This document shows positions 15,280-59,006 of a stretch of DNA of 64,000 bases, piece by piece. The notes beneath the pieces were generated by a model. It was not told the DNA's origin and did not search any database. It saw only the letters and a program-made list of their open reading frames with translations. The first letter of the stretch is position 1, and every line of letters starts with the position of its first letter. Origin of the DNA: Polyangiales bacterium (GTDB taxonomy: Bacteria; Myxococcota_A; Polyangia; Polyangiales; Ga0077539). The stretch is taken from assembly GCA_044229975.1 (NCBI GenBank), contig JBGARZ010000001.1, positions 608,001 to 672,000 on the forward strand, read 5' to 3'. A program made the translations under genes and the position numbers.

Positions 15280-15306
15280 TACCTCCCCACAGGGGACTTG
15301 AAGGGT

Positions 15307-16455: not shown

Positions 16456-16497
16456 CGGGCGAATCCTCCGTGCTGGGCACGGAGCTCTCGCCGGAGG

Positions 16498-16767: not shown

Positions 16768-16817
16768 GGTTCACTGAACCCTTCAAATCCCCTGTGGCGA
16801 GGTACTAGTACCTCGCC

Positions 16818-17708: not shown

Positions 17709-17714
17709 AGAAGG

Positions 17715-17963
17715 TCAGCGCGACGTGGTGAGACCGTCCGGCACGGGCAGGTGCACCCGCTGGGGAACACCGGCGGTGTGCGGAGGCGGTGGTGGCGGTG
17801 GTGGTGGCGGAGGCGGAGTGCGGACGCCACCGTCACGCGATGGCGGCTGCTGGGCGTGAGCGTCCGTGATGCAGCCCTCAACGGCGACGCCTGCTGCGAG
17901 CAGGCCGAGGAGCGTCGGGATGGCGGTGCTGCGCGACGAGGCAACGGGGCGACGTGGGCTCAT
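17715..17963 (-). CDS. Small secreted/lipoprotein with poly-Pro tract
   Basis: Hydrophobic signal ending VEGC, 12-Pro run. Confidence 0.5.
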   Translation of the reverse strand: MSPRRPVASSRSTAIPTLLGLLAAGVAVEGCITDAHAQQPPSRDGGVRTPPPPPPPPPPPPHTAGVPQRVHLPVPDGLTTSR

Positions 17964-18134
17964 GACTACGAGGATCGCATGAAGATCGAGGTCGTCGCAC
18001 GGTGAGCCCGGACGACCACTGATGCAGCGCCGACCCGGTCGCGAGAGGGAATCGCCCGACGCCCGGAATAGCCACGATCCCACACCTGGTTGTGCCTCGG
18101 TCGGCAGGGGATCTTCCGCCGCCGACCGACCCGA

Positions 18135-18557
18135 ATGCGCTCGCTGGTCCTCGCCCTCTGCGCCGCGTTCGCCGTGCTGCTCACGGCCATGCCCGCGCAC
18201 GCGCAGACGCCGCGGCGCTGGTGTGTCGGCGCCTTCGCCAGCTACCGGCATCTCGACCGCGACCAAGCGACCTCCTTCGTCCGCGCGGACGCACCCGTCG
18301 CGGCACCCGCTACACCGCAGCGCTCCCAAGCACCGACGCTGTGTGACGACCCTCGCCGACCGGGCTGTCACATCGACCGCCCCGACGCCCCGAGACATCA
18401 CACGTCGTGGGATCTCCACCACGAACCGATGGCGCTGACGAGCGCCGTGCCCGAGGTCCCGCCGCGATCGGCCGATGACGTCACGACCGACCCGTTGCTT
18501 CGCGGTGGACCGCGCGTCGCGACGACCCGATCGCCCTGGCGCCCGCCCAACGCCTGA
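18135..18557 (+). CDS. Secreted hypothetical protein
   Basis: Signal peptide MRSLVLALCAAFAVLLTAMPAHA. Confidence 0.55.
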   Translation: MRSLVLALCAAFAVLLTAMPAHAQTPRRWCVGAFASYRHLDRDQATSFVRADAPVAAPATPQRSQAPTLCDDPRRPGCHIDRPDAPRHHTSWDLHHEPMALTSAVPEVPPRSADDVTTDPLLRGGPRVATTRSPWRPPNA

Positions 18558-18673
18558 ACGCGTCTCCGCGTAGGCATCGACGCGCGATCGCTCTGGGAGG
18601 AGCGGCGCGCGGCGACCGGGTCGCGTCTTGCGCGCTCCCGGGTGGGTCGTCGTGCAGGCAGTCGGAGGATCTC

Positions 18674-20671
18674 GTGAGTAAGGGAAGCATCGCCGTCTCC
18701 GCGCTATTGGCGCTGATCGTCAGTTTCTTCGCGGGCTACGCCACGACACCGCGGAGTCGATCGCGATGGCGCGATTGGTCCCGCTTCACGGTCGCAGACC
18801 GCCGGGTCGCTCACCCGATGGACGACGCCGAACGCATTCCCATCGGCGCGTCCCCAATGCTCGGCCCCGAAGATGCGCTCGTCACCATCGTGCAGTTTGG
18901 AGACTTCGAGTGTCCGTTCTGCGCGCGCGTCGAGCAGACGCTCCAACAGATCCGCCAGCAGTACGGGCGCGACGTCCGCGTCGTCTGGAAGAACGCTCCA
19001 CTGCCCTTCCACCAGAACGCCGTCCCCGCGGCCGAGGCCGCGATGGAGGCGATGGCCCAGTGCGGTCACGACGGGTTCTGGCGGATGCACGACCTGCTCT
19101 ATCGCGAGCAGCAGAAACTCAGCACGGCCACCCTGGAGCACCTCGCGCTCGAAGCCGGCCTCGACCTCACCCGCTCCCGCGCGGCCCTCCACGACCACCG
19201 GCACCGGGCCTCCATCGATCGCGACGTGGCCCTCGCGCAGACCCTCAGCGCACAGGGCACGCCCAACTTCTTCATCAACGGAACCCAGGTCACCGGCGCC
19301 CAGCCCTTCGACCGATTCCAGAGCGTCATCGACCGCGTGATCGCCCGCGCGCGCACCATCGAGCCGCGCCGACATGCCTACGCCGCCATGGTCGTCGACC
19401 CGGTGAACGTCTCGGATCCGCATCGTGAGCCGCCCGCGTGCGGAGGAGGACTCTGGCCGCAGGAGGACTTCCCCGGTCGATGGCGCGTGCCGGTGGAGCA
19501 CTCGCCGGTGCAGGGACCGAGCACGGCGCTCGTGACGATGGTGATGTTCGGGGACTTCGAGTGCCCCTTCTGCGCGCGGGCGAGAGGCACCGTGGCGCAG
19601 CTCCGCGCCCGCTACGGCAACGACCTCCGAGTGGTGTGGAAGAACGAACCCCTGCCCTTCCACACGGCGTCGCGCCCGGCGGCCGAGCTCGCGATGGAAG
19701 CCTTCGCCCAACGCGGCAACGAAGGGTTCTGGCGGATGCACGACCTCCTCTTCGCACACCAGAGCGCCCTCGATCGCGCTCACCTCGATGGGTACGCCCT
19801 GCGGTCGGGCCTCGACATGGACCGCTACACCGCAGCGATGAACGCCCACACCCACGGCGCCGCCATCGACGCCGACCACGCCCTCGGCCAGACGGTCCGG
19901 GCCAACGGCGTCCCGCACTTCTTCCTCAACGGCTTTCGTCTCGTCGGCGCCCAACCGCTCGACACCTTCGTCCGCGCCATCGACGAGGAACGGAGGCGGG
20001 CGGCGGAGTTCATGCGGGCCCACCCCGACGTCACCCGCGCCGATCTCTACGAGCGCATGGTGCTCAACCCTCCACCGCCCCCTCCGGCGCTGCCCGCCGA
20101 CGAGGAGGGCCGCGTCTACCCCGTGCGCGACAACCCGCATGCCCCGAGCTTCGGCCCGGCCAACGCACGCGTCGTGATCCAGCACTTCGCGGACTACCAG
20201 TGCCCGTTCTCGTCGCGCGTCGGGCCGGCCATCGCGCGCATCCGCCAGCGCTACGGCGACCGCGTGCGCTTCGTGTGGCGGGACTATCCGCTGCCCTTCC
20301 ATCCCGCGGCGATGCCCGCCGCCGAGGCTGCTCGCGAGGCGTACGCCCAGCGCGGAAACGCGGGCTTCTGGCGCTTTCACGACTACCTCTTCGAACACCA
20401 GCAGCACATCGAGCGCGAGGACCTCGAACGCTACGCCCGCGAGCAGGGACTCGACGTCGACCGCTTCCGCGCCGCGCTCGATCGCCACATCCACAAGCGC
20501 GGCATCGAGGAGGACATGGCCGCCGCCGACGCCACCGGCGCCTCCATCGGCACGCCCGCCTTCTTCATCGGGGGAAGGTTCGTCGCGGGCGCGTTGGCGT
20601 TCGAGGAGTACGAGCGGCGCATCGACGCCGCGCTCGCCGCCACCACGTGGGTGGTGCTCCCGCATCGGTAG
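18674..20671 (+). CDS. Triple-domain DsbA/thioredoxin-fold protein
   Basis: Three repeats: DFECPFC, DFECPFC, DYQCPFS, each with PLPFH and GTP/GVP..FF. Confidence 0.93.
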   Translation: MSKGSIAVSALLALIVSFFAGYATTPRSRSRWRDWSRFTVADRRVAHPMDDAERIPIGASPMLGPEDALVTIVQFGDFECPFCARVEQTLQQIRQQYGRDVRVVWKNAPLPFHQNAVPAAEAAMEAMAQCGHDGFWRMHDLLYREQQKLSTATLEHLALEAGLDLTRSRAALHDHRHRASIDRDVALAQTLSAQGTPNFFINGTQVTGAQPFDRFQSVIDRVIARARTIEPRRHAYAAMVVDPVNVSDPHREPPACGGGLWPQEDFPGRWRVPVEHSPVQGPSTALVTMVMFGDFECPFCARARGTVAQLRARYGNDLRVVWKNEPLPFHTASRPAAELAMEAFAQRGNEGFWRMHDLLFAHQSALDRAHLDGYALRSGLDMDRYTAAMNAHTHGAAIDADHALGQTVRANGVPHFFLNGFRLVGAQPLDTFVRAIDEERRRAAEFMRAHPDVTRADLYERMVLNPPPPPPALPADEEGRVYPVRDNPHAPSFGPANARVVIQHFADYQCPFSSRVGPAIARIRQRYGDRVRFVWRDYPLPFHPAAMPAAEAAREAYAQRGNAGFWRFHDYLFEHQQHIEREDLERYAREQGLDVDRFRAALDRHIHKRGIEEDMAAADATGASIGTPAFFIGGRFVAGALAFEEYERRIDAALAATTWVVLPHR

Positions 20672-22454: not shown

Positions 22455-24956
22455 ATGGAGACGAAGCAACGCGCTCAACGATGGGTCGCGGTCGTGTCGG
22501 TTGTCGGGTTCGCGATGGCGTGCAACCCCGACCCGGTGGCGACCCCGACGGACGTTCCCGCCGCCGACGGAGGCGGTGGCGACACCGGCGGCGACACGGG
22601 GACCGTGGACGATCAGGGCACCGCGGAGGACAGACCCGCCGTCGACACCGGCGGGTTCGACGCCCCGTCGCAGGACATCGGAGGAGGCCCGGACGTCGTC
22701 GTCGACATGGACTCGTCCATCGACGCGGGCGGAGGCAGCGACGCGACGGACATCGACGCGCCCGACGTCCTGACCTGCGGCGCCGACCTCACCGCGTGCG
22801 GCGCCACGTGCGTCGACACCCGCTCCAGCAGCGCCAACTGCGGCGCGTGCGGCACCGCCTGTACCGGCGGCACGAGCTGTACCGCCGGGACCTGCACCTG
22901 CCCCGCGGGCCAGGTCTCGTGCAGCGGAACCTGCGTCGACACCACCAGCAGCGCCACCAACTGCGGCGCGTGCGGCACCGCGTGCGCCGCCGGGCAGGTG
23001 TGCTCGGCGGGCGTCTGCGGAAGCTCCTGCGGCGCCGGGCTGATCTCGTGCGGCGGCGCGTGCGTCGACACCCAGTCGAACAACGCCCACTGCGGCGGCT
23101 GCGGCGTCGCCTGCACCGGCGGCACGACCTGCGTCTCGGGCGGATGCGCCTGCCCGAGCGGACTCACCCGCTGCGGTGACGCGTGCGTCGACACGCGCAG
23201 CGCCGCGGCCAACTGCGGTACCTGCGGCACGGCTTGCTCCGCGGGCCAGGTGTGCTCGGCGGGCGTGTGCGCCACGAGCTGCGCGACCGGCACCACCAAC
23301 TGCTCCGGCGCGTGCGTCGACACGACCTCCAGCGCCACCAACTGCGGCGCGTGCGGCGTCTCGTGCACCGGCGGCACCGCGTGCGTCGCGGGCGCCTGCG
23401 CCTGCCCGGCGGGCCAGAGCCTCTGCGGCGGCGTGTGCACTGCGACCTCGACCGACTCGCGCAACTGCGGCGCGTGCGGCCGGGCGTGCAGCGTCGGCCA
23501 GGCGTGCGCGGCGGGGAGCTGCGTCGTCGAGTGCCCGGCCGGGACCACCAACTGCGGCGGCGTCTGCTTCGACCTCGGCACCAGCGCGGGCAACTGCGGC
23601 GCGTGCGGCGTAGCCTGCACCGGCGGGCGCACCTGCACCGGCGGGAGCTGCGTCTGCGCGGCGGGCCTCACGAGCTGCTCGGGCGCCTGCGCCAACACCC
23701 AGACCGACGGCGCCAACTGCGGCGCCTGCGGGCGCACCTGCGGCGCGAGCCAGCTCTGCTCGGCGGGCGTCTGCACGCTCGTCTGCGCAGCGGGCACCAC
23801 CAACTGCGGCGGGTCGTGCGTCAACCAGCAGACCGACAGCGCCAACTGCGGCGCGTGCGGGGCGGCGTGCACCGGCGGCCAGGTCTGCACCGCGGGCGCC
23901 TGCGGGTGCCCGACGGGTCAGCTCCTCTGCGGCGGCGTCTGCATCAACCCGCAGACCAACAACACCAACTGCGGCATCTGCGGAAACCTCTGCGCGGGCG
24001 CCACGACGTGCACGGCGGGCGTCTGCGCGTGCCCGACCGGCCAGGGCCTCTGCGGCGGCGCGTGCACCGACCTGACCAACAGCCGCACCAACTGCGGCGC
24101 CTGCGGGCGCAACTGCATGGGCGGTCAGGTCTGCAACGCGGGCGTCTGCGGCGCGACCTGCGCCACGGGGCTCACCAACTGCAACGGCAACTGCATCAAC
24201 ACGCAGACCAGCACCGCCAACTGCGGCGCCTGCAACCGCGCCTGCGGCGGCACGGCGACCTGCGCGGCGGGCGCCTGCACCTGCGCGACGGGGCAGAACT
24301 ACTGCGCGGGCGGCGGCGGTGGTGGCGGCGGCGGCGCGGGCTGCTTCGACCTCCAGAGCAACTCGCTCCACTGCGGCACCTGCGCGACCACCTGCACTGG
24401 AGGAACGGTCTGCACGGCGGGCGTCTGCGCGTGCCCGGCCGGCCAGACGCGCTGCGGGGCGACCTGCGTCAACACGCAGACCAGCAACACCAACTGCGGC
24501 GCCTGCGGCCGCACCTGCGGGACGGGTCAGACCTGCACCGCGGGCGTGTGCGTGTGCCCGACGGGCAACACGATGTGCGGCTCGGCGTGCGTCAACCTCC
24601 AGACGTCGAGCACCAACTGCGGCCTGTGCGGCAACACCTGCGCGGGCGGCACGGCGTGCTCGGCGGGGCGCTGCACCTGCCCGGCTGGCCAGATGCTCTG
24701 CGGCTCGGCGTGCGTCAACACCACGACCAGCACCGCCAACTGCGGCGCCTGCGGGCGCACCTGCGGCGACGGCCAGGTCTGCACCGCGGGCGCCTGCGCC
24801 TGCGCCACGGGCGGCATCACGGGCAGCCTCACCAACTGCGGCGCCGATGGTGGTGCTCTGGCCTGCTTCAACCTCAACTTCAGCAACTCCAACTGCGGGG
24901 CGTGCGGTCGCGCCTGCGCCGCTGGCCAGCGCTGCCTCCTCGGCGTCTGCCGCTGA
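22455..24956 (+). CDS. Large Cys-rich repeat lipoprotein (Stig1/MXAN_6577-like repeats)
   Basis: Lipobox AMAC; 17 C-x8-(N/H)CGxC units. Confidence 0.9.
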   Translation: METKQRAQRWVAVVSVVGFAMACNPDPVATPTDVPAADGGGGDTGGDTGTVDDQGTAEDRPAVDTGGFDAPSQDIGGGPDVVVDMDSSIDAGGGSDATDIDAPDVLTCGADLTACGATCVDTRSSSANCGACGTACTGGTSCTAGTCTCPAGQVSCSGTCVDTTSSATNCGACGTACAAGQVCSAGVCGSSCGAGLISCGGACVDTQSNNAHCGGCGVACTGGTTCVSGGCACPSGLTRCGDACVDTRSAAANCGTCGTACSAGQVCSAGVCATSCATGTTNCSGACVDTTSSATNCGACGVSCTGGTACVAGACACPAGQSLCGGVCTATSTDSRNCGACGRACSVGQACAAGSCVVECPAGTTNCGGVCFDLGTSAGNCGACGVACTGGRTCTGGSCVCAAGLTSCSGACANTQTDGANCGACGRTCGASQLCSAGVCTLVCAAGTTNCGGSCVNQQTDSANCGACGAACTGGQVCTAGACGCPTGQLLCGGVCINPQTNNTNCGICGNLCAGATTCTAGVCACPTGQGLCGGACTDLTNSRTNCGACGRNCMGGQVCNAGVCGATCATGLTNCNGNCINTQTSTANCGACNRACGGTATCAAGACTCATGQNYCAGGGGGGGGGAGCFDLQSNSLHCGTCATTCTGGTVCTAGVCACPAGQTRCGATCVNTQTSNTNCGACGRTCGTGQTCTAGVCVCPTGNTMCGSACVNLQTSSTNCGLCGNTCAGGTACSAGRCTCPAGQMLCGSACVNTTTSTANCGACGRTCGDGQVCTAGACACATGGITGSLTNCGADGGALACFNLNFSNSNCGACGRACAAGQRCLLGVCR

Positions 24957-46270: not shown

Positions 46271-47227
46271 ATGGGACGGTTCGACGAGAGTTCGGTGCTG
46301 GTCACGCGCGGACCTGCCCCGGCCTGGATCGCGGCGTCAGCGGCGACTGCCGTCACGGTGCTCGTGACGCGGGTGGCCGCCTTCAACGGCGGGGTTGCGC
46401 CCGAGTATCAACGGCACGAGTTCTTCCTGACGGGCGCCCTCTTCGCGGTCACCGCGCTCGGCCACACGGCGCTGCTCGCGCTCGTCGCGCGGTTCCGCTC
46501 GACGGTCGTGGGGGTCGCCGCGCTGGTGTTGGGCGCGATCGCCCTGCCGCGGGTTTCCGACGCGCTCCGGCCCTACACCGGGCGGGCGATGGCGGCCGCG
46601 CTGCCTCGCTACTGCGCCGATCTGCCCGAGCTCTGTCCGCCGCCCGCGTGGGACGTCGCGCAGAGCGTCGTCGCGGCCCTCTGTCTCGCGCCCTTCCTCG
46701 TCGCGCTGATGGAGGTGCGCGCCCGCGACGCGCTCGACGGCCGCGCCCGGGTCGCGTGGGCCTCCGGGCTGATGATGATCGTCGCGGCGGGCGTGATCCC
46801 GTGCTTCGGCAGGGCCTCCCCGGTGGCAGCGCCGGTGACGTACGTCGCGGGCGTCGCGCTCATGGCGCTCGCGACGGCCGAGAACGCGAGGCGCCTCGCG
46901 TGGGTCGCCGCGCGGTTGGGCGACGGCGGCGCGTGGATCGTCGAGCGCACGCCGGGCGCCCACGACGGCCTGCGCCCGCTCTGCGCACCCGAGACGCTCG
47001 ACCTGCAAGACGGCGTGCTGGTGGTGCGTGAGAGGGCGCCCAATGCGATGTACCGCGCGGCGCTCCACGGCACGCCCATCGCGACGCTGAGCGTCGACGG
47101 CGGGTCGACGCTGGACGCGATGCGAGGTCGGTTGAGGAAGCAGCGGCGGGCGCTCGCCGTGGCTGCGGTGGGAGCAACGGCGGTCGGGGTCGCGACGCTG
47201 GTGGTGCGGGTCATCCAGGGCTCATAG
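46271..47227 (+). CDS. Membrane hypothetical protein
   Basis: GGAGG RBS; several TM helices. Confidence 0.65.
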   Translation: MGRFDESSVLVTRGPAPAWIAASAATAVTVLVTRVAAFNGGVAPEYQRHEFFLTGALFAVTALGHTALLALVARFRSTVVGVAALVLGAIALPRVSDALRPYTGRAMAAALPRYCADLPELCPPPAWDVAQSVVAALCLAPFLVALMEVRARDALDGRARVAWASGLMMIVAAGVIPCFGRASPVAAPVTYVAGVALMALATAENARRLAWVAARLGDGGAWIVERTPGAHDGLRPLCAPETLDLQDGVLVVRERAPNAMYRAALHGTPIATLSVDGGSTLDAMRGRLRKQRRALAVAAVGATAVGVATLVVRVIQGS

Positions 47228-47540
47228 GAGACTCGGCGGGGCACCACCGTCGGCGTGGATCGGCTCTGGTTGCAGACTGCGCTCGGCCCCTATCGCCTCG
47301 CACGGCGCCACAACGCCGCCAGCGCCAGCGTCCACCACCATCCCGTCTCGCGCGCGGCGCCCACCGCGCGGCAGCCGCAGCCCGACACCACCACCGCGCC
47401 CGTCGGCGACGACCGCGAGATCGCGGCAGCGCTCGTTCGGGCAGCGAGCGTACCCTGGGCGAGCGCGCGATCGCGACGAGGTTGATGCAGGACGTCCGGC
47501 TGGGCTTCGACCTGCGCGCCCCGGCCACCTCGGGAGGACC

Positions 47541-48679: not shown

Positions 48680-50047
48680 CTATCGCCAGCGCATCCGAAG
48701 CGCGACACCGTCGTCGCGCATGTTCGGCATCGGGTTCCCCGTGCGCAGGACTGCGCAGAGCGTATCCGTCGGGTCGGGCAGGTCGGCGTAACGGCAACCG
48801 TCCGCGGGCAGCGAGACGCCTCCGCGTGGCTCGACGCGGTCCCCCCGCGAGACGCGGTACCGCCACATCGCTCGCAGCGCCAGCGCCACGTCCATGCCGG
48901 TGGCGAGTGCGCGACTGTAGCCACCCGTGAGCCACTCGCCGTCGACGCGGAACAACGCCGCGCGTCCCGCTTCGAGACCGAACGACAGCGCCTCACGGAA
49001 GGCGGAGGGGATCGCGGGCACGCGTCGTTCGCGGGCGTGACGCCCCGACAGCCATGTCACGCACCGGCCCATGTATCCCCATGGGTGCAAGCGTTCCATG
49101 AGCTCCCGGGCGAGGCGGTCGGCTTCCATCAACGACGGCAGACACCCGGCCACCAGCCACGCGTCGCGCACCGTGCACGGGGTCGTTCCGCGGACCCAGC
49201 CGTCCCGCCCGCACTCCGGGCACGACTCCGCGCGATCGACGGGCGACGCCCATCGGTGGGGCCGATCACGACGCAGCGGACACACCACGCCGATCGCGCG
49301 GGCGTCGCCGTCGAACAGGTCCAGCGGCACGTCACCCTGGCGCGCGAGCTGCTGCCAGTACGCGCCCGCGTCGCCCCGCCACTCCGGGTGCTCGACGCGG
49401 CGGGAGATGGGCGTACGGAGTCGGCGGGACCGCGGTCGATCGGCCGCCGTCTCCTCGATGAGCGCGACGAGGCGGTGGCCCTCGCGGAGCGCCCCGTCGA
49501 GCCACGACTCGAACCACGCGAAGAAGCCTTGCTCGCCATGGGTCCCGCCGAGTGGCTCGCTGTGCTCCTCCCAGAAGGTCCAGATGTGACCGCGCGTGGG
49601 GCCGTCGAGGACGATCCCGTCGAAGCCGGCGCAGCCGTGGTGGGCGAGCAGGAGCACTCCGGCATCGAGGGTGCCGACGAAGGGCGCTGCGAGGCGGGAG
49701 GGTGGCCGAAGCGGCACGTCCAGGGCTGTGTTCGGGGCGAGGCGGTGGCTGTCCTTCGGGGAGGTCACCTCCCCGACCCGGCCGAGCTGGAAGAGGCCGT
49801 AGCCGGGGCCTGCGATGCCGTCCGCCACTTCGGTGACGAAGCGTCGGTACTCCGCCGGGAGCTCGACGCCGACCGCACGCTCGAAGGCCGCCACGTCGCC
49901 CTCGGGGAGCGGCGGTCGGAACCGGAACCGGTGCCCCTCCCACCCGTGGTCGAAGCTCGGGGAGAGGGTCGCCGCGCCCGCCCGCGCGACCAGGCGGAGC
50001 AACTCGTCACGCTTGTCGCGAATCCGCCCAATCGCTCCGTCGGTCAT
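48680..50047 (-). CDS. SMI1/KNR4 (SUKH) family protein with long C-terminal extension
   Basis: PPLPEGDVAAFERAVGVELPAEYRRFV..G.GPGYGL, HGCA..G.IW. Confidence 0.8.
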   Translation of the reverse strand: MTDGAIGRIRDKRDELLRLVARAGAATLSPSFDHGWEGHRFRFRPPLPEGDVAAFERAVGVELPAEYRRFVTEVADGIAGPGYGLFQLGRVGEVTSPKDSHRLAPNTALDVPLRPPSRLAAPFVGTLDAGVLLLAHHGCAGFDGIVLDGPTRGHIWTFWEEHSEPLGGTHGEQGFFAWFESWLDGALREGHRLVALIEETAADRPRSRRLRTPISRRVEHPEWRGDAGAYWQQLARQGDVPLDLFDGDARAIGVVCPLRRDRPHRWASPVDRAESCPECGRDGWVRGTTPCTVRDAWLVAGCLPSLMEADRLARELMERLHPWGYMGRCVTWLSGRHARERRVPAIPSAFREALSFGLEAGRAALFRVDGEWLTGGYSRALATGMDVALALRAMWRYRVSRGDRVEPRGGVSLPADGCRYADLPDPTDTLCAVLRTGNPMPNMRDDGVALRMRWR

Positions 50048-50222: not shown

Positions 50223-50298
50223 GAACCCAGAGTGCGACGTGCCCCTCTCGGTGACGTCTGTCGGAAACTCCACGCGCACCCGTTGGAGAGCTCGCTGA
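50223..50298. repeat. Dispersed intergenic repeat, copy 1
   Basis: Aligns to copy 2 at about 52/64 positions; core GACGT..GG.AACTCC.CGCGCACC.GTTGGAGAG.TCGCTG. Confidence 0.85.
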
Positions 50299-50311
50299 GC
50301 GACACGACCCG

Positions 50312-50866
50312 TCACCCGCCCGCGTCGTCACCCTCGTACACGTCGTCGACCGCGAGCCTCCCCCCGAACTCCGGCAACGCGAGAACCTCGCCCGCCGTGA
50401 CGACGGTGAGCGTCCAGGTGCCGTCGGGGTTGCGGCGGTAGTGCTCGATGCGGCGCCGCCCGACGGACACCATCAGGTAGTGCCGCAGCGACTCGAGGAG
50501 CTGGTAGTCGGCGAACTTGTCGCCGCGGTCGAAGCGTTCGGTCGAGGGCGAGAGCACCTCGACGATCAGGGTCGGGTTGGTGACGGCGACCGTGTCGACG
50601 GCATCGCGTGCGAGGGGGCCGCATACGACCGTGCCGTCGGCGTAGTAGGCGTTGCCTGACGCGGGGACGCGCACCTTGAGGTCGGACGAGAAGACGCGGC
50701 ACGGCCCGCCCCGCATGAGCTGCCGCAGCTCCGCGCCGACGGAGAGCGCGAGCCGCGCGTGCTCCGGCTCGCCGCCGGCCATCGCGCACGCGAAGCCGCC
50801 GACGAACTCGTGACGCACACCCGACGAGCGCTCCAGCGCGAGGTACTCGGCGTAGGTGGTCCTCAA
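50312..50866 (-). CDS. Uma2 family endonuclease
   Basis: EYL..RHEFVGG..AMAGG..H, SDLKVRV, NPTLIVEVLSPSTERFDRGDKF; start uncertain (TTG 50866; ACG at 50884 where ATG would be expected). Confidence 0.9.
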   Translation of the reverse strand: MRTTYAEYLALERSSGVRHEFVGGFACAMAGGEPEHARLALSVGAELRQLMRGGPCRVFSSDLKVRVPASGNAYYADGTVVCGPLARDAVDTVAVTNPTLIVEVLSPSTERFDRGDKFADYQLLESLRHYLMVSVGRRRIEHYRRNPDGTWTLTVVTAGEVLALPEFGGRLAVDDVYEGDDAGG

Positions 50867-51078
50867 CTTCTCCGCCGCGCTCGTCGGCCGCGATGGTAGG
50901 CGACGCGCGTGGTGGTGAACAGTCGCAGGGCGACGACTCGCCCGCGAGACCGACGGTCGGCCCCCATCAACAACCTGGCGTCGATCTCCAGCAGGTCGAC
51001 CAGCGGCCCAGGGAAGGTCACGCGCCAGCGGAACCACCTCACCCGCCCGTCGCGGCTCTGCCTCGCCTCAAGCATCGC

Positions 51079-51603
51079 CTACGGCACGCCCGCGGGGCGC
51101 GGGGGGAGAGTCGCCTCCCAGTCGGCGATGTGGATGTGTCGCATCCGTTCTCCGGGGCGGAGCGTGATCACGATCGACACGTGATGCGCGCCGCGGCAGC
51201 AATCGCCGCGATGCCCGCATGTCGCCATGCACGCAACCGAATCGGTGAATCCACCCGCACGCGTTCGTCCGGCGGCGTCGAGCGCGTAGCCGACGAGCAC
51301 ATAGGTTCCGGCGGGTAGGCCCCGCACGGCGAATCGATTGTCCCGGGCGATCGTGACGAAGTACGCGCACGATCCGGGTGCGTCCTGACGGATCGCGACG
51401 ACCTGCACCGGGAGCCGAACGCCGACCGGGCGATAGAACGACCCTTCGATGGTTGCAGTGTCCGCTGGCGTGCGCGGCGTGCACGTCGTCGTGGCGGTGG
51501 CCATCGCAGTCGCGCTCGGCGAAGGCGACTGCGCCCACGCGGGTGCCGCCCGTTGCAGGGAGAGCAACACGACCGAGGCGACGGGCAGCGGCTGGGTGTT
51601 CAC
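51079..51603 (-). CDS. Secreted hypothetical protein (carboxypeptidase-regulatory-like fold)
   Basis: FAVRGLPAGTYVL motif; signal-like N-terminus. Confidence 0.55.
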   Translation of the reverse strand: MNTQPLPVASVVLLSLQRAAPAWAQSPSPSATAMATATTTCTPRTPADTATIEGSFYRPVGVRLPVQVVAIRQDAPGSCAYFVTIARDNRFAVRGLPAGTYVLVGYALDAAGRTRAGGFTDSVACMATCGHRGDCCRGAHHVSIVITLRPGERMRHIHIADWEATLPPRPAGVP

Positions 51604-51753
51604 GAAGCGAGGGTGACATCGCTGCGGCGAGGAGGTTCCGCGAGGCCGCGCATCACGGCGCCGCTCGGGCGCTCACGCACGCGTTGCGGGCGAGCGCACT
51701 CGACCTGCGCCGAGTGCGGGACGAACACGTCGAAGTCGCGCTCGTCATCGCGG

Positions 51754-51834
51754 ACCGAACTCCCATGTCTACGAAGTACCTCTCTCGTTGACGTGCGCCG
51801 GGAACTCCGCGCGCACCGTTGGAGAGTTCGCTGG
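51754..51834. repeat. Dispersed intergenic repeat, copy 2
   Basis: ACCGAACTCCCA...TGGAGAGTTCGCT, imperfect inverted ends. Confidence 0.85.
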
Positions 51835-51884
51835 CTCCTGCCACCAGCCTCGATCGGTTCATGGTCACTCGCCCGCGACGCCTC

Positions 51885-52940
51885 CTACGCCACGCTCCCG
51901 CGGACGGCCGTCGCGACCTTCACCCACTCGCCGCCCGCCGAGCGCTTGTAGATCACCGACTGCCACACCGTGCGGTCGTCCTCCTCCGCGACGATCTCCG
52001 GAAACCCGTCGCCGTCCAGGTCGAACACCGCGATCGGGCGGACGAACGACCCGTCGCTGCGGGGCCTCACGCGCTCGACCTGCCAGTCGCCCCTCTCCCA
52101 CCGCGCGATGATGATGCCGGCCCGCCCGAACACCAGCCGGACGGTCGGCGCCCCGTCGTCCCGGCCGCGCGGCGCGTCGGACGCCCGGAAGAAGAGCGCC
52201 CGGCTGTGCAGCGGAAGGGGCACCGGGTCGTGGTCGCCCGTCTCCTGCGCGTGGAGGCGGTCGTCCAGGGTGAGCGCCGCGGCCCACTGGTCGAGATCGG
52301 GGTCGTGCCGCGCCGAGGGCGGCGGGCGCCACGGCCCGGACGTCGACGCGAACAGCCCCGACGACCCGTGGTGCTCTGGAACCAGCGTGAGCTCGTCGCA
52401 GTTGGTGACGTCGTAGTACTGGCCGTCCCAGAGCGTCGACTCGCCGACGACCTGACCCCAGCGGTCGATCTCGCGCCAGCGGGTTCCGTGGACGGCGAAG
52501 GGCTCGCAGCAGGGCTGACCCGCGCGCTCGATGCCGCGCGCCGTGACGCGCGCCAGCGGGACGTGCGGCGCGTGCGACAGCCACATCGTCACGCCCGCGC
52601 CGACGGGGCACCGCGGCGAAGCGGGCCGCGACGTCGGTAGCGTCGGGGGCCACTCCGCGTAGAGGAAGTCGTCGCCGTCGAAGAGGGACATCGGGTGCCG
52701 CAGGGTGCGCGGGTTGAGGTCGATCGCCGCGGCCAGACCGCCGTCCACCGCGGAGGCGTCAGGGGCCGACGCGTCGCTCGCGGGCGCGACGGCGACCGAC
52801 GCGTCGACCCGCTGGACGCGGCGCGCGGGCGACCGGTGGGGGTGACAGCCGACGGCTACCAGCGCGAGCCACGCCCCGACGCCCGCGACGCTGAGGGCGC
52901 AGGGCATTCCGGTGCGTAGGCTCTCCCGGCGCGCGTCCAT
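51885..52940 (-). CDS. Lipoprotein-like hypothetical protein with FG-GAP-like motif
   Basis: AVGC lipobox; FDLDGDGFPEIV. Confidence 0.65.
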   Translation of the reverse strand: MDARRESLRTGMPCALSVAGVGAWLALVAVGCHPHRSPARRVQRVDASVAVAPASDASAPDASAVDGGLAAAIDLNPRTLRHPMSLFDGDDFLYAEWPPTLPTSRPASPRCPVGAGVTMWLSHAPHVPLARVTARGIERAGQPCCEPFAVHGTRWREIDRWGQVVGESTLWDGQYYDVTNCDELTLVPEHHGSSGLFASTSGPWRPPPSARHDPDLDQWAAALTLDDRLHAQETGDHDPVPLPLHSRALFFRASDAPRGRDDGAPTVRLVFGRAGIIIARWERGDWQVERVRPRSDGSFVRPIAVFDLDGDGFPEIVAEEDDRTVWQSVIYKRSAGGEWVKVATAVRGSVA

Positions 52941-53125
52941 CGGCCGACGGTACACCGCGCCCCCCGATCGCCTGGCACGAACCGGATCGGCCCGCTGCGA
53001 GTGGTCGAGCCGCTGCTGCTTGCCGGGCTGCGATGGGGCTGTGCGGCTTCGAGCAGTGAGCCACGCGCGAGGGCCGATCGGAGGTCCAGCGGGGCACGAT
53101 CATCGGCACGGATCTGCTGCGGTTG

Positions 53126-53207
53126 ACCGAACGCCCAGACCGCGAGGTTCACCTGTCAGCGACGTACACCGGGAGCTCAGCGCCCGCCCGCTGGAGAGCT
53201 ACGCTGG
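53126..53207. repeat. Dispersed intergenic repeat, copy 3
   Basis: ACCGAACGCCCA...GACGTACACCGGGAGCTC...GCTGGAGAGCTACGCTGG. Confidence 0.85.
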
Positions 53208-53273
53208 CCGCCGCCAGGCCCGCCGACGCGGTGTGCTCCGACGCCAACGCGCTCGTCTGCCGCTCGCGACCCG

Positions 53274-54266
53274 CTACGCCCCGCGCTCGAACCGCAGGCG
53301 CAGCACCTCGTCGTCGAGCTCGCGAGCGATCGCGAGCGCCCGCCGCCGCGCGTCGGCCCCCTCCTCGCCGCCGACGATGCGCCCGAGCATCTGGAGCGCC
53401 ATCGCGCGCATGCGGATGTGGCCACCGTCGCCCGCGTGCCGACACGCCTCGCGGGCCAGCGCCGCGCCCTCATCGGCGAAGCCCTGCTTCCAGCGCGCGT
53501 AGGCGAGCCCGTTCGCCCGTCGACAGCGCGCGAAGGCCGGCGCCCCCTCCGTCGGGATCAGGTGGTACAGCGCCTCCGCGGCGGCCGGGTCGGGCGGTCG
53601 ACCGCCGCGGGCGCGGTTGCGCTCGTACGCGTGGTGGTCGATCCAGCGGGCGTGCAGGCACGCGCGGTCGTGCGCGGGCATCGGGTGCGCGAGCAGGGGC
53701 TCGGCCTCGGCCAGCAGCGATGGCACGCGCGCGGGGTCGTCGCGGCTCGCGAGGAAGGCCTCGACGAGGAGGTGCTCGGCGCGCGCGTCGGCGGGCGCCC
53801 GCGACAGCACCGGGCGGACGCGGGCGAGGTGCGCGCGGGCGGCGTCGCGGTCGTCCGAGCGCAGCGCGCAGGTGACGTGGGCGAGCGCGAGGAAGACGTG
53901 CGAGGCGAGCTCCTCGCTCACGGGCGGACGGTCCCAGAGGCGCACGAGGTCGACGCACAGCGGCACCGGGAGGTCGGTGTAGCGCGAGTGGTACGAGCCC
54001 ATCCAGCGGGCACGCTCGGAGAGGGCGCCGGGCAGACCGAAGGCCGCCAGCGCCCGCGCGCCCCACGCGCCGCCGTCGCCCTGGCCGCGGGTGCGCAGGC
54101 GGCGCAGGGCGCGCTCGATCGAGGCCACGTCGTCCTCGTAGCCGCGGAGCGCCGAAAGGCGCCCGGCCACGGCGGCCAGCGAGCCCTCGCGGGCGACGAG
54201 CCACGCGACGTATTCGCCCCAGGAGAAGCCGGCGGCGTAGCCATGTCCGAAATCGTGTCCGGGCAT
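53274..54266 (-). CDS. Hypothetical helical (HTH/TPR-like) protein
   Basis: 330-aa GC3-rich ORF. Confidence 0.7.
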   Translation of the reverse strand: MPGHDFGHGYAAGFSWGEYVAWLVAREGSLAAVAGRLSALRGYEDDVASIERALRRLRTRGQGDGGAWGARALAAFGLPGALSERARWMGSYHSRYTDLPVPLCVDLVRLWDRPPVSEELASHVFLALAHVTCALRSDDRDAARAHLARVRPVLSRAPADARAEHLLVEAFLASRDDPARVPSLLAEAEPLLAHPMPAHDRACLHARWIDHHAYERNRARGGRPPDPAAAEALYHLIPTEGAPAFARCRRANGLAYARWKQGFADEGAALAREACRHAGDGGHIRMRAMALQMLGRIVGGEEGADARRRALAIARELDDEVLRLRFERGA

Positions 54267-54319
54267 CGGGGAGGCCCGGAGGATATCAACGGTCCGGGCG
54301 CACGAAGGAGCGCCATCGC

Positions 54320-54883
54320 ATGACCACCCGACCCGCCTTCTTCCTCGTCATCGACCTCGAGGCGACCTGCGACGACACCGGTGCCATCCCCCCGAAGATC
54401 ATGGAGATCATCGAGATCGGCGCCGTGCTCGTCGACGCCGCCTCCCTCGCGCCCGTCGCGGAGTTCTGGACCTTCGTGCGTCCGGTGATCCGCCCGACGC
54501 TCACGCGGTTCTGCACCGGGCTCACGACCATCGCGCAGGCCGACGTCGACGCGGCGCCGACCTTCCCCGCGGCCGTCGAGGCGCTCGGCCGCTTCGTCGG
54601 CGACCGCGACGCGCTCTTCTGCTCGTGGGGCGACTACGACCGCAACCAGTTCGCCATCGACGCGGCGCGCTGGGGCGTCACCCTCCCGCTCCGCGGCCAC
54701 ATGAACGTCAAGAAGCGCTTCTCCGCCGCCCTCGGCGAGACCCAGCGTTACGGCATGTCGGCCGCTCTCGAGCGGCTCGGGCTCCCGCTCGTCGGCACGC
54801 ACCACCGGGGCATCGACGACGCCCGCAACATCGCGCGCATCCTCCCGTACGGCGTCGGCCGGGTTCCCATTCCCGGCCGGTGA
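54320..54883 (+). CDS. DEDDh 3'-5' exonuclease (KapD/ERI1-like)
   Basis: IDLEATC, EIIEIGAV, SWGDYD, HHRGIDDA. Confidence 0.93.
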   Translation: MTTRPAFFLVIDLEATCDDTGAIPPKIMEIIEIGAVLVDAASLAPVAEFWTFVRPVIRPTLTRFCTGLTTIAQADVDAAPTFPAAVEALGRFVGDRDALFCSWGDYDRNQFAIDAARWGVTLPLRGHMNVKKRFSAALGETQRYGMSAALERLGLPLVGTHHRGIDDARNIARILPYGVGRVPIPGR

Positions 54884-55166
54884 GCGCCCGCGTCGAGGCC
54901 GAGCACCCGCTCGCGCGTCTCGCCGAGCGCGGTGAGCATGAGGATGGGCGTGCTCACTCCGGCGCGCCGCAGCTCGCGGCAGACGGAGAGGCCATCGAGG
55001 TCGGGCAGCATCCAGTCGAGGGCGATGACGTCGTAGAGGCCGTCCGCGGCCTGGGCGAGGGCGTCGGCGCCGCGGCGCAGGTGTCGGCCGCGAAGCCCTC
55101 CTCGGCGAACACCCTGGCGAGGAAGCGCGCGACCTTCCGGTCGTCCTCGACGACGAGCAGCTTCAT
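54884..55166 (-). pseudogene. OmpR-type response regulator remnant
   Basis: MKLLVVEDD..; frameshift near 55073; LDWMLP..PILMLTA..GLDAGA then truncated before DDY and the DNA-binding domain. Confidence 0.88.
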
Positions 55167-55383
55167 CGCGCCGACCTTGGCGCCTGTTCGAACCCTGCAC
55201 AGGTGCACCATGCACCTTGCACACGTGTCACGGACTCCGCGCTGACTCGTCGCCGCAGCGCTGCCGCGCACCTTCGCCCACGCGCCCGTATGCGAGTCAC
55301 CTTCGCGCCGGTCACCCAACGCGCACCTGCGGCATCCGTGGACGCGTACGTCGGCCCGGCGTTCGCTGTGCACACGGATCGTT

Positions 55384-56559
55384 GTGAAGAACTTGCTCGC
55401 ACCCAGGTGGCCGCGTCGCTTCGCGCTCGCCGCCCTCATGTCCGTGACGGCCGCTTGTGGCAACGAGGTTGAGCCCATGCGCGACCACGGGTGGCAGGAC
55501 GACTCGGGCGGCGGCAACCCCGACATGGAGGCCACCGGGAGCGCCACCGTGGGACCTCCCATGCAGCGCGACGCGGGGCAGGTCCCCGATCAGCCCGCGG
55601 TCGACCCTGCGGACGCGTCGCCCAACGGCAACAACCCGGGGCCGGACGCAAACGCCGTCGCGAGCATCGCGGGGCGGTCGTGTGGGCGCGGCCTCATGTG
55701 CAACGGCCACTCGTGCTGCGAGACCATCTCCGTCCCTGGCGGAACGCTCCTCTACGGTCGCTCGGTCGCAGGCCAGGACGCGTACAACGTCCCCAACCCG
55801 GAGGAGCTGCCCGAACACCCCGTGACGATCCCGGACTTCTATCTCGACCGCTACGAGGTGACGGTCGGGCGCTTCCGCAAGTTCGTCGAGGCGTGGACGG
55901 GTGCCCCCATTCCGGCTGGCGCTGGCGCCCACCCCGCGGTGCCCGGCAGCGGCTGGCAGGCCGAGTGGAACCGTCAGCTCCCGCCGGACCGCGACGCCTT
56001 TATCGGTGCGCTCCACTGCGCCGGGGGCCTTGAGTCGTGGCACGACGAGGAGGGACCCGACGACGCGCGGCCCATCGGTTGTCTCGACTGGTACGAAGCG
56101 TTCGCGTTCTGCATCTGGGATGGTGGTCGCCTGCCCGTCGAGTCGGAGTGGGAGTACGCCGCGGCCGGCGGCTCGCAGAACCGCCTGTACCCCTGGGGCT
56201 CCGACGAGCCCGACTGCACCCGGGTTCGCCCCTTCGGCAACTGCGCCGGGGCGTCGGACATCCTCGCTCCGGTCGGCACCCGCCCCGCGGGCGCGGGCCT
56301 CTGGGGTCACGAAGACTTCGCGGGCGGTGCCATGGAGTGGGTGCTCGACTACTACGAGAACTACGTCGTCGACCTGCCCGGCCTGCACGCCCGCCTCGAC
56401 CCGCCGTACCGCGCCATGTCGCGGCGCGCGCTGCGGGGTCTGAGCTTCCACGGAGGCGGCGGCGACATGCGCAACACCGACCGCGGCAACGCGCTGCCCA
56501 GCTCCCGCTACGAGCGCTTCGGTGTCCGCTGCGCGCGCAACGTCGCGCCGACCCCGTAG
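55384..56559 (+). CDS. FGE-sulfatase (SUMF1) domain lipoprotein
   Basis: TAAC lipobox; FYLDRYEVTVGRF, RLP.ESEWEYAA, YPWG, EWV.D, FGVRCAR. Confidence 0.9.
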   Translation: MKNLLAPRWPRRFALAALMSVTAACGNEVEPMRDHGWQDDSGGGNPDMEATGSATVGPPMQRDAGQVPDQPAVDPADASPNGNNPGPDANAVASIAGRSCGRGLMCNGHSCCETISVPGGTLLYGRSVAGQDAYNVPNPEELPEHPVTIPDFYLDRYEVTVGRFRKFVEAWTGAPIPAGAGAHPAVPGSGWQAEWNRQLPPDRDAFIGALHCAGGLESWHDEEGPDDARPIGCLDWYEAFAFCIWDGGRLPVESEWEYAAAGGSQNRLYPWGSDEPDCTRVRPFGNCAGASDILAPVGTRPAGAGLWGHEDFAGGAMEWVLDYYENYVVDLPGLHARLDPPYRAMSRRALRGLSFHGGGGDMRNTDRGNALPSSRYERFGVRCARNVAPTP

Positions 56560-56575
56560 CGCGAGCTCGGTTGCA

Positions 56576-56638
56576 TCACCCATGAGCGACGTACACCGGG
56601 AGCGCCCCGCCCGGCCGCCCGCTGGAGAGCTACGCTGG
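56576..56638. repeat. Dispersed intergenic repeat, copy 4
   Basis: AGCGACGTACACCGGGAGC and GCCCGCTGGAGAGCTACGCTGG are identical to copy 3. Confidence 0.88.
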
Positions 56639-56683
56639 ATCTTCAGATACGATCACAGGTAGGCGTCGTCCCGGATCCGAGTC

Positions 56684-57253
56684 ATGACTTCCAGCGATCT
56701 CGACGAGCAGCTTAGCAGCAAGGAGAGTCTCTTCCCGGAGCTGTTCAAACACTTCCGGGCTGGAGGTTGGTCTGAGACGTGGCGCGCCCGACCCTCCGAG
56801 GTTGAACGCGAGCCTGTCGACTGGGTAGTCCCATTCCCGATGCACGAACTCGCGAGGGCAATACTGGAACGCTTCCTTGGGCGGCAGTTCCGGACTGTGG
56901 ACGTGCATTTTGGGACTTCGCATCACTGCACGGCCAAGAGCCTGCAGGTGATCAAGCCCTATGAGGTCGAGGAGTACCTCTTGGGAGAGCGCCCCCCTAC
57001 GAAGAGTCGCCCTCCGGCGTTCCCCGTGTGCATGTCGAACTCTTTCGTCATGTTCCTGCGCGAGGACTGGTCGACGGTCATGGTGAGCTACTGCTGGGCG
57101 GAGTTCGTAGTCGTCGACAACCTGTTCGAGATTCTGAACGCGTTCACCACCCACACGTCTCCGTTCCTTCGCGACACGACCCTCTGGACTCTCATCACGG
57201 AGCCCAGCCAGGTTCCGGACCGCGTCCAGAAGACCATCTACCTCACGCCCTGA
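56684..57253 (+). CDS. Hypothetical protein, atypical composition
   Basis: 189-aa ORF, visibly more AT-rich codons than its neighbours. Confidence 0.65.
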   Translation: MTSSDLDEQLSSKESLFPELFKHFRAGGWSETWRARPSEVEREPVDWVVPFPMHELARAILERFLGRQFRTVDVHFGTSHHCTAKSLQVIKPYEVEEYLLGERPPTKSRPPAFPVCMSNSFVMFLREDWSTVMVSYCWAEFVVVDNLFEILNAFTTHTSPFLRDTTLWTLITEPSQVPDRVQKTIYLTP

Positions 57254-57430
57254 CTGCACGCGTGCCCTGACGATCCGGGACCGAGAACCCCGAGCCGAGC
57301 GTGAGCTGCTCGACGTCGCGCAGGCCGGGGATCTCCCTCGGCGAGGCTCTCCAGCGGCAGTCAGTTGGTAGGGGGAGAGTCGTACATTGCCGGGCTGTTG
57401 CGGCGATCGCGCGGGAGCATGCAACAACAA

Positions 57431-57476
57431 CTGGGAGCGCCGCGCCCGCCCGTTGGAGCGCTGGAGAACTCGCTGG
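57431..57476. repeat. Dispersed intergenic repeat, partial copy 5
   Basis: GGGAGCGCCGCGCCCGCCCGTTGGAG..CTGGAGAACTCGCTGG. Confidence 0.65.
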
Positions 57477-57521
57477 CGCGTCGAACGGAAAGCGCGTCCT
57501 CGGGGCCCCGCCGAAAAGCGA

Positions 57522-57706
57522 CCGCCCACGCCCGCGGTACGCGGACTTACCCGGAGGGACGCACCCGCCCACGCCCGCGGTCGTCGACTCCGTCGTAGGG
57601 TTAAGGGTGCGGGGAGCAGACGACCGCGGGCGTGGACGGGCGCTTCCCTCCGGGTAAGTCCGCGTACCGCGGGCGTGGACGGGCGCGTCCCTCCGGGTAA
57701 GTCCGC
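57522..57706. repeat. Long inverted repeat built from 43-bp units
   Basis: 57522-57585 pairs with 57619-57682 (4 mismatches in 64); units at 57623 and 57666 are tandem. Confidence 0.92.
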
Positions 57707-57868
57707 ATTGGGAGGCGTGAGTGGAGCGCGCCGGAGCGTCCCCGCTGCTCCGTCCGCACCTTCCGCCCTCTCGCGAAGCCCCCGTCGCCCGCCGTCCATC
57801 CCGTCCGACGTCCTCCGTCCACTCCGCGGCCCGTCCCCACTCGCCGCCATCGGCCACCGGAGCGTCCG

Positions 57869-57899
57869 GGACGCGATGGAAGCCCCTCCCATCGCGTCC
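57869..57899 (-). terminator. 11-bp perfect stem-loop just downstream of the 57927 stop
   Basis: GGACGCGATGG-9 nt-CCATCGCGTCC; no U-tract. Confidence 0.45.
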
Positions 57900-57926
57900 A
57901 GAACACATCCACCTACATCCGCAGGA

Positions 57927-58685
57927 CTACCCCTTGGCGGGACCATCGACCGGCGGGGTCACGGGCTCATCCTCGGTCGCCGCGGTGGCCCGGCCGATGG
58001 CCTTGTGCACCCGCGCGGCGCTCTCCGCGTCGCCCAGGAACTCGTACAGCCCCTGGAGGATCCGCGCGAGCCCCACGCGCCGGGCGCGCGCCACTCGCAG
58101 CGTCTTGTCGCGCTTCACCAGCGCGGCCGACTCCTCGCGCGCCTCGCGGGCGAGCGCCTTCAGCGTCTTGTCGAGCGCCGCGGCGTCGTCGGCGATGCCC
58201 GCGACGAGCTTCGGCACGTCGAGCGTCACGCCGCCGCGGGTGGCCTTCGGCGGGTGTGTCTTCACCCGCGCCAGAACGCTTCCTGCCAGCGCGATGAGCG
58301 CGGCCTCGCGCTCGGGGGTGGCGCCGACGAAACCGAGCTCCGTGACGACGGTCTCGTCGCACACCGAGTCGATGGTCTTGCGCAGGCCCACGAGGCGCGC
58401 CGAGAGGGAACCACGCTGCCGTTCGCGGTCGGCGAGGAGGGGCGCGTCGTCGGCGCGCTCGGCCTCCAGCGCGCGCTGCGCCACCTCGGCGTCGCGCGCG
58501 GCGGCGTCGGTGGAGCGGGCGAGCCACGCGAGCACGGGGCCCAGCAACGGGACGCGCTCCTTGGCGTGGGCGACCTCGGCGAAGATCTCGGCGACCTCGT
58601 CGGCGACGCGATCGCCCGCGGTCTCCACGAGCTTCGACAGGTCGAGCGAGGCTTCGGCCGTGCGTGCGGTGTCCTTGGCAGTCAT
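57927..58685 (-). CDS. Hypothetical coiled-coil protein
   Basis: GGAGG RBS; E.ADD, LGF.G.TP, ARE.RE motifs. Confidence 0.8.
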   Translation of the reverse strand: MTAKDTARTAEASLDLSKLVETAGDRVADEVAEIFAEVAHAKERVPLLGPVLAWLARSTDAAARDAEVAQRALEAERADDAPLLADRERQRGSLSARLVGLRKTIDSVCDETVVTELGFVGATPEREAALIALAGSVLARVKTHPPKATRGGVTLDVPKLVAGIADDAAALDKTLKALAREAREESAALVKRDKTLRVARARRVGLARILQGLYEFLGDAESAARVHKAIGRATAATEDEPVTPPVDGPAKG

Positions 58686-59006
58686 CGATGCACCTCCCAG
58701 TGTGTGAGCGCCGCAGCTCCCTCGCGCGGACGCTTGTCGAGTAAAGCGGTAACAGGGAGACGCGGCGCTGGTGAAGGGCGAACGCGCCAACGGGGCACTT
58801 CGTGGGGGCGCTGTGGGAGCGGCGGGGCGTGGGCCTACATCGAAAGCGGTGGTGTCCGTTGTGACCTTGAGAGGCAGGCCATTCAGGGGCAGTTGAGTCG
58901 CGCCGCCTCGTCCGGTCGCAGACCTCCCACCCGTGACGTTGCAGTCCCTCATACCCCGACGCACCCGATAGAGCCCTGCGCCGATCCGTGCTCCCCTCCA
59001 ACGCGC

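Follow-up and report, generated by a model that had tools for sequence, protein, structure and literature searches.

In a 64,000-nt stretch of the genome of a Polyangiales bacterium (NCBI GenBank assembly GCA_044229975.1, contig JBGARZ010000001.1, positions 608,001 to 672,000; the whole stretch is called the window below), short and similar sequences recur between unrelated genes at positions 50,223 to 57,476. What are these repeats, and how did they come to separate such different pieces of DNA? The initial annotation took them for a 65-85 bp element that divides an accessory region into single-gene units, and proposed a cassette or recombination site like the attC sites of integrons, with a MITE/REP-type element or a structured RNA as alternatives. 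Sequence comparison identifies the repeat as the distal portion of the oriIS region in an insertion sequence (IS) of the ISCR type, IS91 family. Copies that stand alone, without a transposase gene, are probably joints made by its HUH transposase while captured DNA was being stacked.

Five co-oriented, homologous and intergenic copies were borne out by alignment and profile search, and copies 1, 2 and 3 do lie 13, 50 and 66 bp from minus-strand stop codons. All five match a seed profile built from themselves with nhmmer E values of 4e-20 to 4e-6. Iterating the profile over the 10-Mb genome (G000) and extending the flanks enlarged the unit to about 134 bp, on the minus strand of the window, running from CAGCGAGCTCTCC to GTTGGnnnnCCTATnnnC; copy 3 alone among the five is complete. 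The left end of copy 3 reads C|CAG, and its right end is the ori tip, in a CCGAT variant of CCTAT, plus 4 nt. It is 82% identical to the end of a complete IS on contig C14, and contigs from runs X1 and X3 read across its tip junction. Copy 2 is missing its ori tip, as about 45 nt have been deleted in comparison with the same junction in genome G005; copy 1 abuts an 88-bp fragment that is 83% like C28:11087-11174, and the junction of copy 4 is spanned by a contig of run X4. Contigs of four low-share DNA sequencing runs yielded no usable excision joints. Copy 5 is recognized by the seed profile (E 3.7e-6) and scores E 1.5 with the full-length profile, which was made from 15 of the genome's matches. 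The window had been thought to hold no further copies, and a 3' half was found at a sixth place (Table 1); its left part may come from another subfamily.

In the whole genome, the profile gives 35 matches at E<=0.05, which with copy 5 make 36 copies, many of them truncated at scattered positions. A neighbour within 10 kb is present for 22 of the 36 (random mean 2.4, maximum 10, in 2000 draws), and the members of 23 of the 31 close pairs lie on the same strand. The copies of the window sit in a variable region, where similarity to the eight congeners searched stops near 46050 and resumes near 59700.

The nature of the repeat is revealed where it continues into a transposase gene. It begins about 110 bp past the stop codon of a transposase with PF04986 and PF14319 domains on contig C14 (copy C14:206497), and about 100 bp past an IS91-family transposase remnant on contig C15 (copy C15:192312). 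The C14 transposase matches PF04986 (Y2_Tnp, 107.5 bits) and PF14319 (Zn_Tnp_IS91, 74.1 bits), both above the Pfam cut-offs, and is 38% identical to the TnpA proteins of ISCR1 and ISCR2; it has an HUH motif (HLH), an RYMARP motif and a single catalytic-type tyrosine. The record titles of the closest transposases name uncultured Deltaproteobacteria, Myxococcales or Myxococcaceae. Six of the nine tnpA loci of the genome have a same-strand copy within 10 kb downstream, a number for which random placement gave a mean of 0.12 and no equal in 5000 placements.

The C14 element ends 240 nt past the tnpA stop in GTTGGnnnnCCTATnnnC, that is, in CCTAT plus 4 nt. Among two ISCR1 and two ISCR2 plasmid loci, the pairs diverge 232 and 235 nt past the stop, respectively, right after TTCCTAT plus 4 nt. 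This tip agrees with the 22-mer printed for the ISCR1 oriIS (PMC13023784), and the divergence point agrees with the 232-bp ISCR1 oriIS region given in PMC13023784 and PMC6218425 (citations here and below refer to excerpts of the papers named). As the distal tip agrees with the oriIS ends of ISCR1 and ISCR2, the repeat can be assigned to the distal oriIS part. The parent element thus has both an HUH transposase with Y2_Tnp and Zn_Tnp_IS91 domains and an oriIS tip of the ISCR kind. No fixed tetranucleotide, such as serves as target in IS91, IS801 and IS1294, stands beside the oriIS; the bases after the tip vary, as they do for ISCR1 and ISCR2. At the inspected junctions, no target-site duplication was seen, and no exact empty site was among them. 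Upstream of many tnpA genes a G+C-rich palindrome or repeat of the GCCGCCATGGCGGC type recurs, with no sharp left end defined. Another IS91-family element, at C19:433729-435793, has a tyrosine-recombinase gene directly upstream of its PF04986 and PF14319 transposase and is without the repeat.

Complete elements carry a conserved subterminal box, GTTGGAWTCGGT, directly before the repeat; the label box A was coined in this analysis. A pattern search located it 72-117 nt past the stop codon in 17 of the 27 distinct ends of tnpA elements examined in G000 and its relatives, and in none of three plasmid ISCR types (ISCR1, ISCR2 and ISPps1). Solo copies begin at the CA right after box A (C|CA), and their right boundary is the ori tip. 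The left end is preceded by C in 19 of 21 solo copies of G000 (the raw count was 18 of 23, from which two complete elements were removed and one row was re-anchored by eye), and in 48 of 52 in ten regions of the relatives that were picked for copy density (background 0.35). This C is the only conserved target bias at the left end, where a hairpin is 91% paired. In the cultured strain Sorangium sp. So ce1128 (CP181432.1), a related tnpA (41%) is followed by a TTCCTAT tip plus 4 nt, and the box A pattern is without match.

The same two boundaries recur with unrelated sequences between them. Box A-to-tip segments of four other elements, from genomes G019, G012, G011 and G017, were used as queries, and all four have solo copies with these boundaries in their own genomes. 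The G019 segment gave 31 matches, 18 alignments of which were inspected. Matches of the G017 segment, most of them bounded at query positions 129-290, number 44 in G017, 40 in G022, 33 in G024 and 13 in G016. A second box A-to-tip family in G000, of 180 bp and less G+C-rich, occurs at C14:37693-37872, C14:41109 and C14:48003 with 99-100% identity; one of these copies lies behind a tnpA, and one between duplicates of C23 (87%) and C36 (99.5%) DNA. The possibility that box A is itself the true oriIS, with an independent miniature behind it, is disfavoured, both by the match of the distal tip to ISCR1 and ISCR2 in sequence and distance and by the recurrence of box A-to-tip pairs with unrelated spacers.

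In the relatives, solo copies form arrays. Over the ten copy-rich regions, the prevailing strand of each region accounts for 60 of 66 copies, and the median spacing is 2.3 kb. Contig C43 of G024 has 14 co-oriented copies in 33 kb. One of its spacers, 66422-67584 (1.17 kb), shares 93% identity with a G022 locus that has no repeat, and the two breakpoints coincide with repeat ends. Four more match other repeat-free loci with one end exact, and one of these is a gene cut just after its start; of the remaining spacers, searched against six genomes, several matched internally only and some matched nothing. In G019, a 5.8-kb block that is 90% like another contig begins at the tip of a 100%-identical solo copy, 8 kb behind a complete element. 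An exact head-to-tail (tip-to-CA) dimer of a 118-bp end segment is present at G012:C99:20809-21045, with a third identical copy 1 kb away and no transposase within the 18 kb fetched. A search for the source of a G011 cargo returned other dispersed repeats and distant paralogues only. The arrays also have a polarity: near box A-linked copies (about 10 kb around each, about 106 kb in all on each side), 14 extra copies lie downstream on the same strand, two downstream on the opposite strand, and none upstream.

The DNA between the copies of G000 has a similar character. Six flanks on the left and four on the right are incomplete duplicates (69-99%) of sequences whose other versions extend further, without the repeat, elsewhere in the genome. 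In the window, positions 51077-51705 are 96% identical to DNA of G005 (contig C706) that follows closely on a tnpA remnant, box A and a repeat with its ori tip, and there the same first bases, from 51745, abut the tip; shared genes of G000 and G005, a different species, are about 76% alike. The duplicate of the C3 locus stops exactly at copy 4. The units are thus not the co-oriented single genes first described, as one to four open reading frames (ORFs) on either strand lie between window copies: two between copies 1 and 2, and four, on both strands, between copies 3 and 4. The idea of a recombination site survives in part. Breakpoints between mobile DNA units are fixed and cassette-like arrays exist in the relatives, but the units are arbitrary fragments.

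Table 1. Repeat copies, genes and duplicated segments of the window, and the transposase gene of the parent element (window positions unless a contig is named)
Feature	Position	Strand	Remarks
Sixth piece of the repeat	47220..47276	-	3' half with ori tip (CTCCTAT+GAGC); E=0.005
455-aa ORF	48680..50047	-	Downstream of copy 1; weak SMI1/KNR4 match, E 0.002, below cut-off
Copy 1	50227..50297	-	5' part, to model position 79
Uma2 (PF05685) family gene	50312..50866	-	Between copies 2 and 1; E 1.3e-33
174-aa ORF	51079-51603	-	In cargo 51077..51745; no Pfam/NCBIfam match
Copy 2	51752..51833	-	5' part, to model position 89 of about 145
ORF of about 350 aa	51885..52940	-	Between copies 3 and 2; weak FG-GAP match
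Copy 3	53073..53206	-	Complete 134-bp distal oriIS segment; model 4-144, E 1.5e-32
330-aa hypothetical (-) and DEDD exonuclease (+, PF00929)	53274..54883	-, +	Between copies 4 and 3
Duplicate (88-93%) of C3:33878-35502	54884..56575		Truncated response regulator and FGE-sulfatase-domain gene
Copy 4	56576..56637	-	5' part, to model position 63; directly joined to the C3-locus duplicate
189-aa ORF	56684..57253	+	Opposite to repeat; between copies 5 and 4; no Pfam/NCBIfam match
Copy 5	57429..57475	-	5' part, to model position 46, with small internal duplication
Duplicate (92%) of C33:394221-395614	57516..58955		Stops 40 bp from left end of copy 5
Intact HUH tnpA ORF	C14:204936-206390		Outside the window

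Further repeats and duplications were noticed. A separate long palindromic repeat with about 34 genome matches lies at 57516-57720, inside the C33 duplicate. A block of 1.5 kb at 15286-16822, probably a recently active IS, recurs with 100% identity at C14:131681-133204 and at two contig ends. A 3-kb block at 17714-20634 has an 86% identical counterpart at C24:31590-34538, and a repeat copy of contig C24 lies 4 kb from that counterpart. Cys-rich coding tandem repeats with a period of about 123-156 bp occur at 8800-9530 and 22746-24955, which we take to be typical of myxobacterial surface proteins. On contig C15 (183360-189470), a 6.1-kb spacer between two copies starts and ends with the same 231 bp (99%) of a Uma2-like gene, as if copying had gone round a circular template more than once.

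The behaviour of IS91 relatives offers a frame for these junctions. Their TnpA nicks at oriIS, rolls toward terIS and acts in trans; rolling frequently ends too soon or too late, and circles of single-stranded DNA insert (PMC13181058, PMC3189936). Right-end miniatures of IS801 have been found to transpose in vivo (PMC3189936). By analogy, a TnpA encoded elsewhere would nick one strand at the ori tip and roll leftward. Box A would act as an internal stop, so that the box A-to-tip segment would be handled as a unit. A single-stranded fragment, foreign or chromosomal and cut at C|N, would then be joined between the new left end and the old tip, giving the order repeat, cargo, repeat; where no cargo was present at the joining step, a head-to-tail dimer would result. 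The G012 dimer is the sole hint of a junction between ori and left end. The window would be an old orphan array, in which four of the five copies have since lost their tips.

Several observations weigh against this reading. Transposition or circles have not been observed, and every mechanistic step is inferred from junctions. Four of the five window copies are tipless, and the window alone shows no clean units; none of the nine tnpA loci lies in it or on its contig, C32. The C14 TnpA matches the NCBIfam models for ISCR clade Ia and IS91 below their cut-offs. The covariation of the left-end stem is not above that of shuffles. The polarity count includes seven regions chosen after their copies had been seen, whereas the 26 unselected loci alone give five downstream copies on the same strand, one on the opposite strand and none upstream; it also ignores repeats of another subfamily, one copy of which precedes the tnpA at C14:35999 by 172 bp. 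Identity falls steadily away from tnpA in G019:C9 and G000:C15, but in G017:C66 the series is not monotonic (100, 82, 97.5, 78 and 81). The search for an exact empty site whose flanks are contiguous was negative. None of the paralogous loci resembled a copy's surroundings on both sides, and in the one usable comparison, at C10:165 kb, about 1.8 kb of cargo plus repeat is missing from G003 and G004, with a left end that could not be placed. Finally, the relatives are draft genomes of 60-1850 contigs, in which near-identical repeats could be misjoined, although in the window the tip of copy 3 and the junction of copy 4 are crossed by contigs of other runs.

Of the other explanations, the one that survives best keeps the element and its enzyme, as a variant of the same reading, and separates the insertion of the repeat from the arrival of the cargo. 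Rolling would stop at box A, and the resulting 134-nt mini-circle would insert at C|N; one-ended transposition would later carry upstream DNA to an existing tip. A miniature without box A would read through its left end, and an existing tip itself ends in C. This scheme uses only steps described for IS801 and IS91, namely right-end miniatures and capture of upstream DNA (PMC3189936, PMC13181058). It explains the C|CA junction, the random starts of the cargo, the G012 dimer and the insertion of cargo plus repeat at C10:165 kb, and given transient or foreign donors it fits nearly as well as duplication of the repeat at the element. It predicts, however, a repeat at the source locus, and the repeat is absent at the breakpoint in all source-like loci examined, including three intragenomic ones, C15:189240, C4:102470 and C1:18788 (95-99%), and five for the G024:C43 spacers. 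Because of this absence, the route in which the repeat is duplicated at the element is slightly favoured, and the two-step scheme is credited with a real but lesser chance of being correct.

Capture at the element might even be the work of a dedicated acquisition system, run by a clade of ISCR-type transposases in Myxococcota, in which box A would be a leader site and each capture would duplicate the 110-180-bp end segment and add a kilobase piece of DNA, from kin or foreign, behind the transposase; this more ambitious proposal is tentative, and we regard it as rather unlikely.

The main rival to any capture is a passive mosaic, in which the copies are IS-end remnants or singly inserted miniatures, and the patchwork arose later as these repeats of 120-160 bp served as substrates for deletion and RecA recombination in horizontally acquired islands. 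Most genomic IS801 fragments are attributed to reorganisation and act as recombination substrates (PMC3189936). Passive recombination explains the scattered truncations, and the tip deletion of copy 2 and the lack of an intact transposase near the window are in line with it; it may account for the window's present state. It has no ready account of a 33-kb stretch in which 14 copies share one orientation and every spacer comes from a different locus, nor of the downstream-only polarity or of a box A boundary common to five families of unrelated segments. As an explanation of the arrays, it is considered improbable.

A structured non-coding RNA, a REP element with its associated tyrosine transposase (RAYT) or a decayed protein-coding family, which the intergenic position of the copies and a 3'-half frame open in several of them could suggest, is very improbable. 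Rfam gave four chance matches at E>=1.1, none of which coincided with a copy in both strand and boundaries, and RNAalifold found no consensus structure for the 5' part. The linked RAYT suggested by the initial annotation as a check was not there, as the four Y1/RAYT (PF01797) matches are all about 20 kb or more from any copy. A long conserved fold, which would support an RNA, is likewise missing (seven full copies, fold z -1.2 to +0.9 against doublet shuffles). A decayed gene was rejected, since the reading frame is shifted or interrupted from one copy to another and the sequence belongs to the non-coding tail behind tnpA. So was a classical miniature inverted-repeat transposable element, since CAGCG... 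at one end and ...CCTATnnnC at the other do not form an inverted repeat, and the 7-8-bp inverted pair is internal.

Recombination of integron attC sites by the genome's own IntI, as in clusters of attC sites lacking integrases (CALINs), is the least credible of all. CTCCAAC and GTTGGAC, which lie about 120 bp from each other in the repeat, form an inverted pair reminiscent of R''/R' boxes, and the genome does encode an integron integrase (TIGR02249, 415 bits, C4:248 kb). GTTGGAC fits the R' consensus GTTRRRY; CTCCAAC misses the first purine of the R'' consensus RYYYAAC, and both are internal to the unit. The inverted ends noted in copy 2 are real (fold z -4.6), but they are peculiar to that copy, and their left arm is an internal truncation point. 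No fold was found for copy 1 (z 0.83) or full copy 3 (0.41 and 0.67), and full copies are without paired L boxes or a long hairpin (z 0.41, 0.67 and -0.78); a true attC of contig C4 scores -3.13, and a second scores -0.66 on a stretch short of the outer box, with its L-box stem still visible. Spacer genes lie on both strands and are cut mid-gene, the repeat profile is without match in the C4 integron array, and none of the 12 tyrosine recombinase (PF00589) matches adjoins a copy. The reading is refuted by the continuity of the repeat with tnpA in complete elements, which places it at a known IS end, the very finding that the initial annotation had named as decisive against a new site. The region C4:243000-251000 (L032) is a genuine integron; besides IntI it holds at least two classical attC sites, nearly identical to each other, at L032:2131 and 3791, and a third is probable near 1920.

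Capture by the HUH transposase is best read as a variant of known IS91/ISCR behaviour and not as a new cassette site. ISCR1, ISCR2/ISVsa3, ISPps1/ISCR8 and ISCR28 share with the present elements a single-tyrosine HUH transposase, an oriIS region of about 235 nt and variable DNA at the tip. They differ in that tens of fixed-length, transposase-less ends per genome, in co-oriented arrays of chromosomal fragments, are seen here, whereas ISCR elements carry single resistance modules and not arbitrary fragments. In IS801, miniatures of 229, 360 and 679 nt, and in IS91 and IS1294, one-ended transposition, are examples of ori-end fragments mobilised in trans and of adjacent DNA captured (PMC3189936). 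The IS801 miniatures owe their ends to a target-like tetranucleotide, without any further consensus, and only a small number of them have become fixed in the genome (PMC3189936); here, in contrast, one conserved box determines where the left end lies, even among unrelated segments, and arrays of copies build up. Helitrons have an HUH enzyme, non-autonomous copies and gene fragments taken from many loci by read-through (PMC4778049). They differ in that here the transposase is of the IS91/ISCR type and the repeated unit is the origin end; the Helitron-type helicase part was not searched for. Integrons and CALINs are similar in having an enzyme gene at one end, followed by co-oriented short repeats that separate acquired DNA. 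Unlike them, the present arrays are without a tyrosine recombinase link or an attC fold, and their cargo is cut regardless of gene borders and strand.

Some of this is already in print, according to the excerpts cited: miniature ori-end derivatives for IS801, and a gene sandwiched by an extra oriIS for ISCR28 (PMC12772301). A literature search that covered titles and abstract openings, few subscription journals and no supplements returned no fixed-end solo segments in capture arrays. As of 2018, no ISCR had been shown to transpose (PMC6218425). ISCR elements are blamed for moving resistance genes, and the arrays bear on how DNA lands downstream of oriIS. They offer dozens of base-exact junctions, a candidate stop in box A, the C|CA rule, a dimer with zero cargo and an intact transposase. 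They also account for cassette-like intergenic repeats that are overlooked by integron finders and Rfam. If the dedicated system proved true, it would be an integron-like or clustered regularly interspaced short palindromic repeat (CRISPR)-like acquisition run by a single-strand HUH enzyme, and the window would be an orphan, decaying array. The arrays suggest a route by which these myxobacteria may sample the gene fragments of their relatives.

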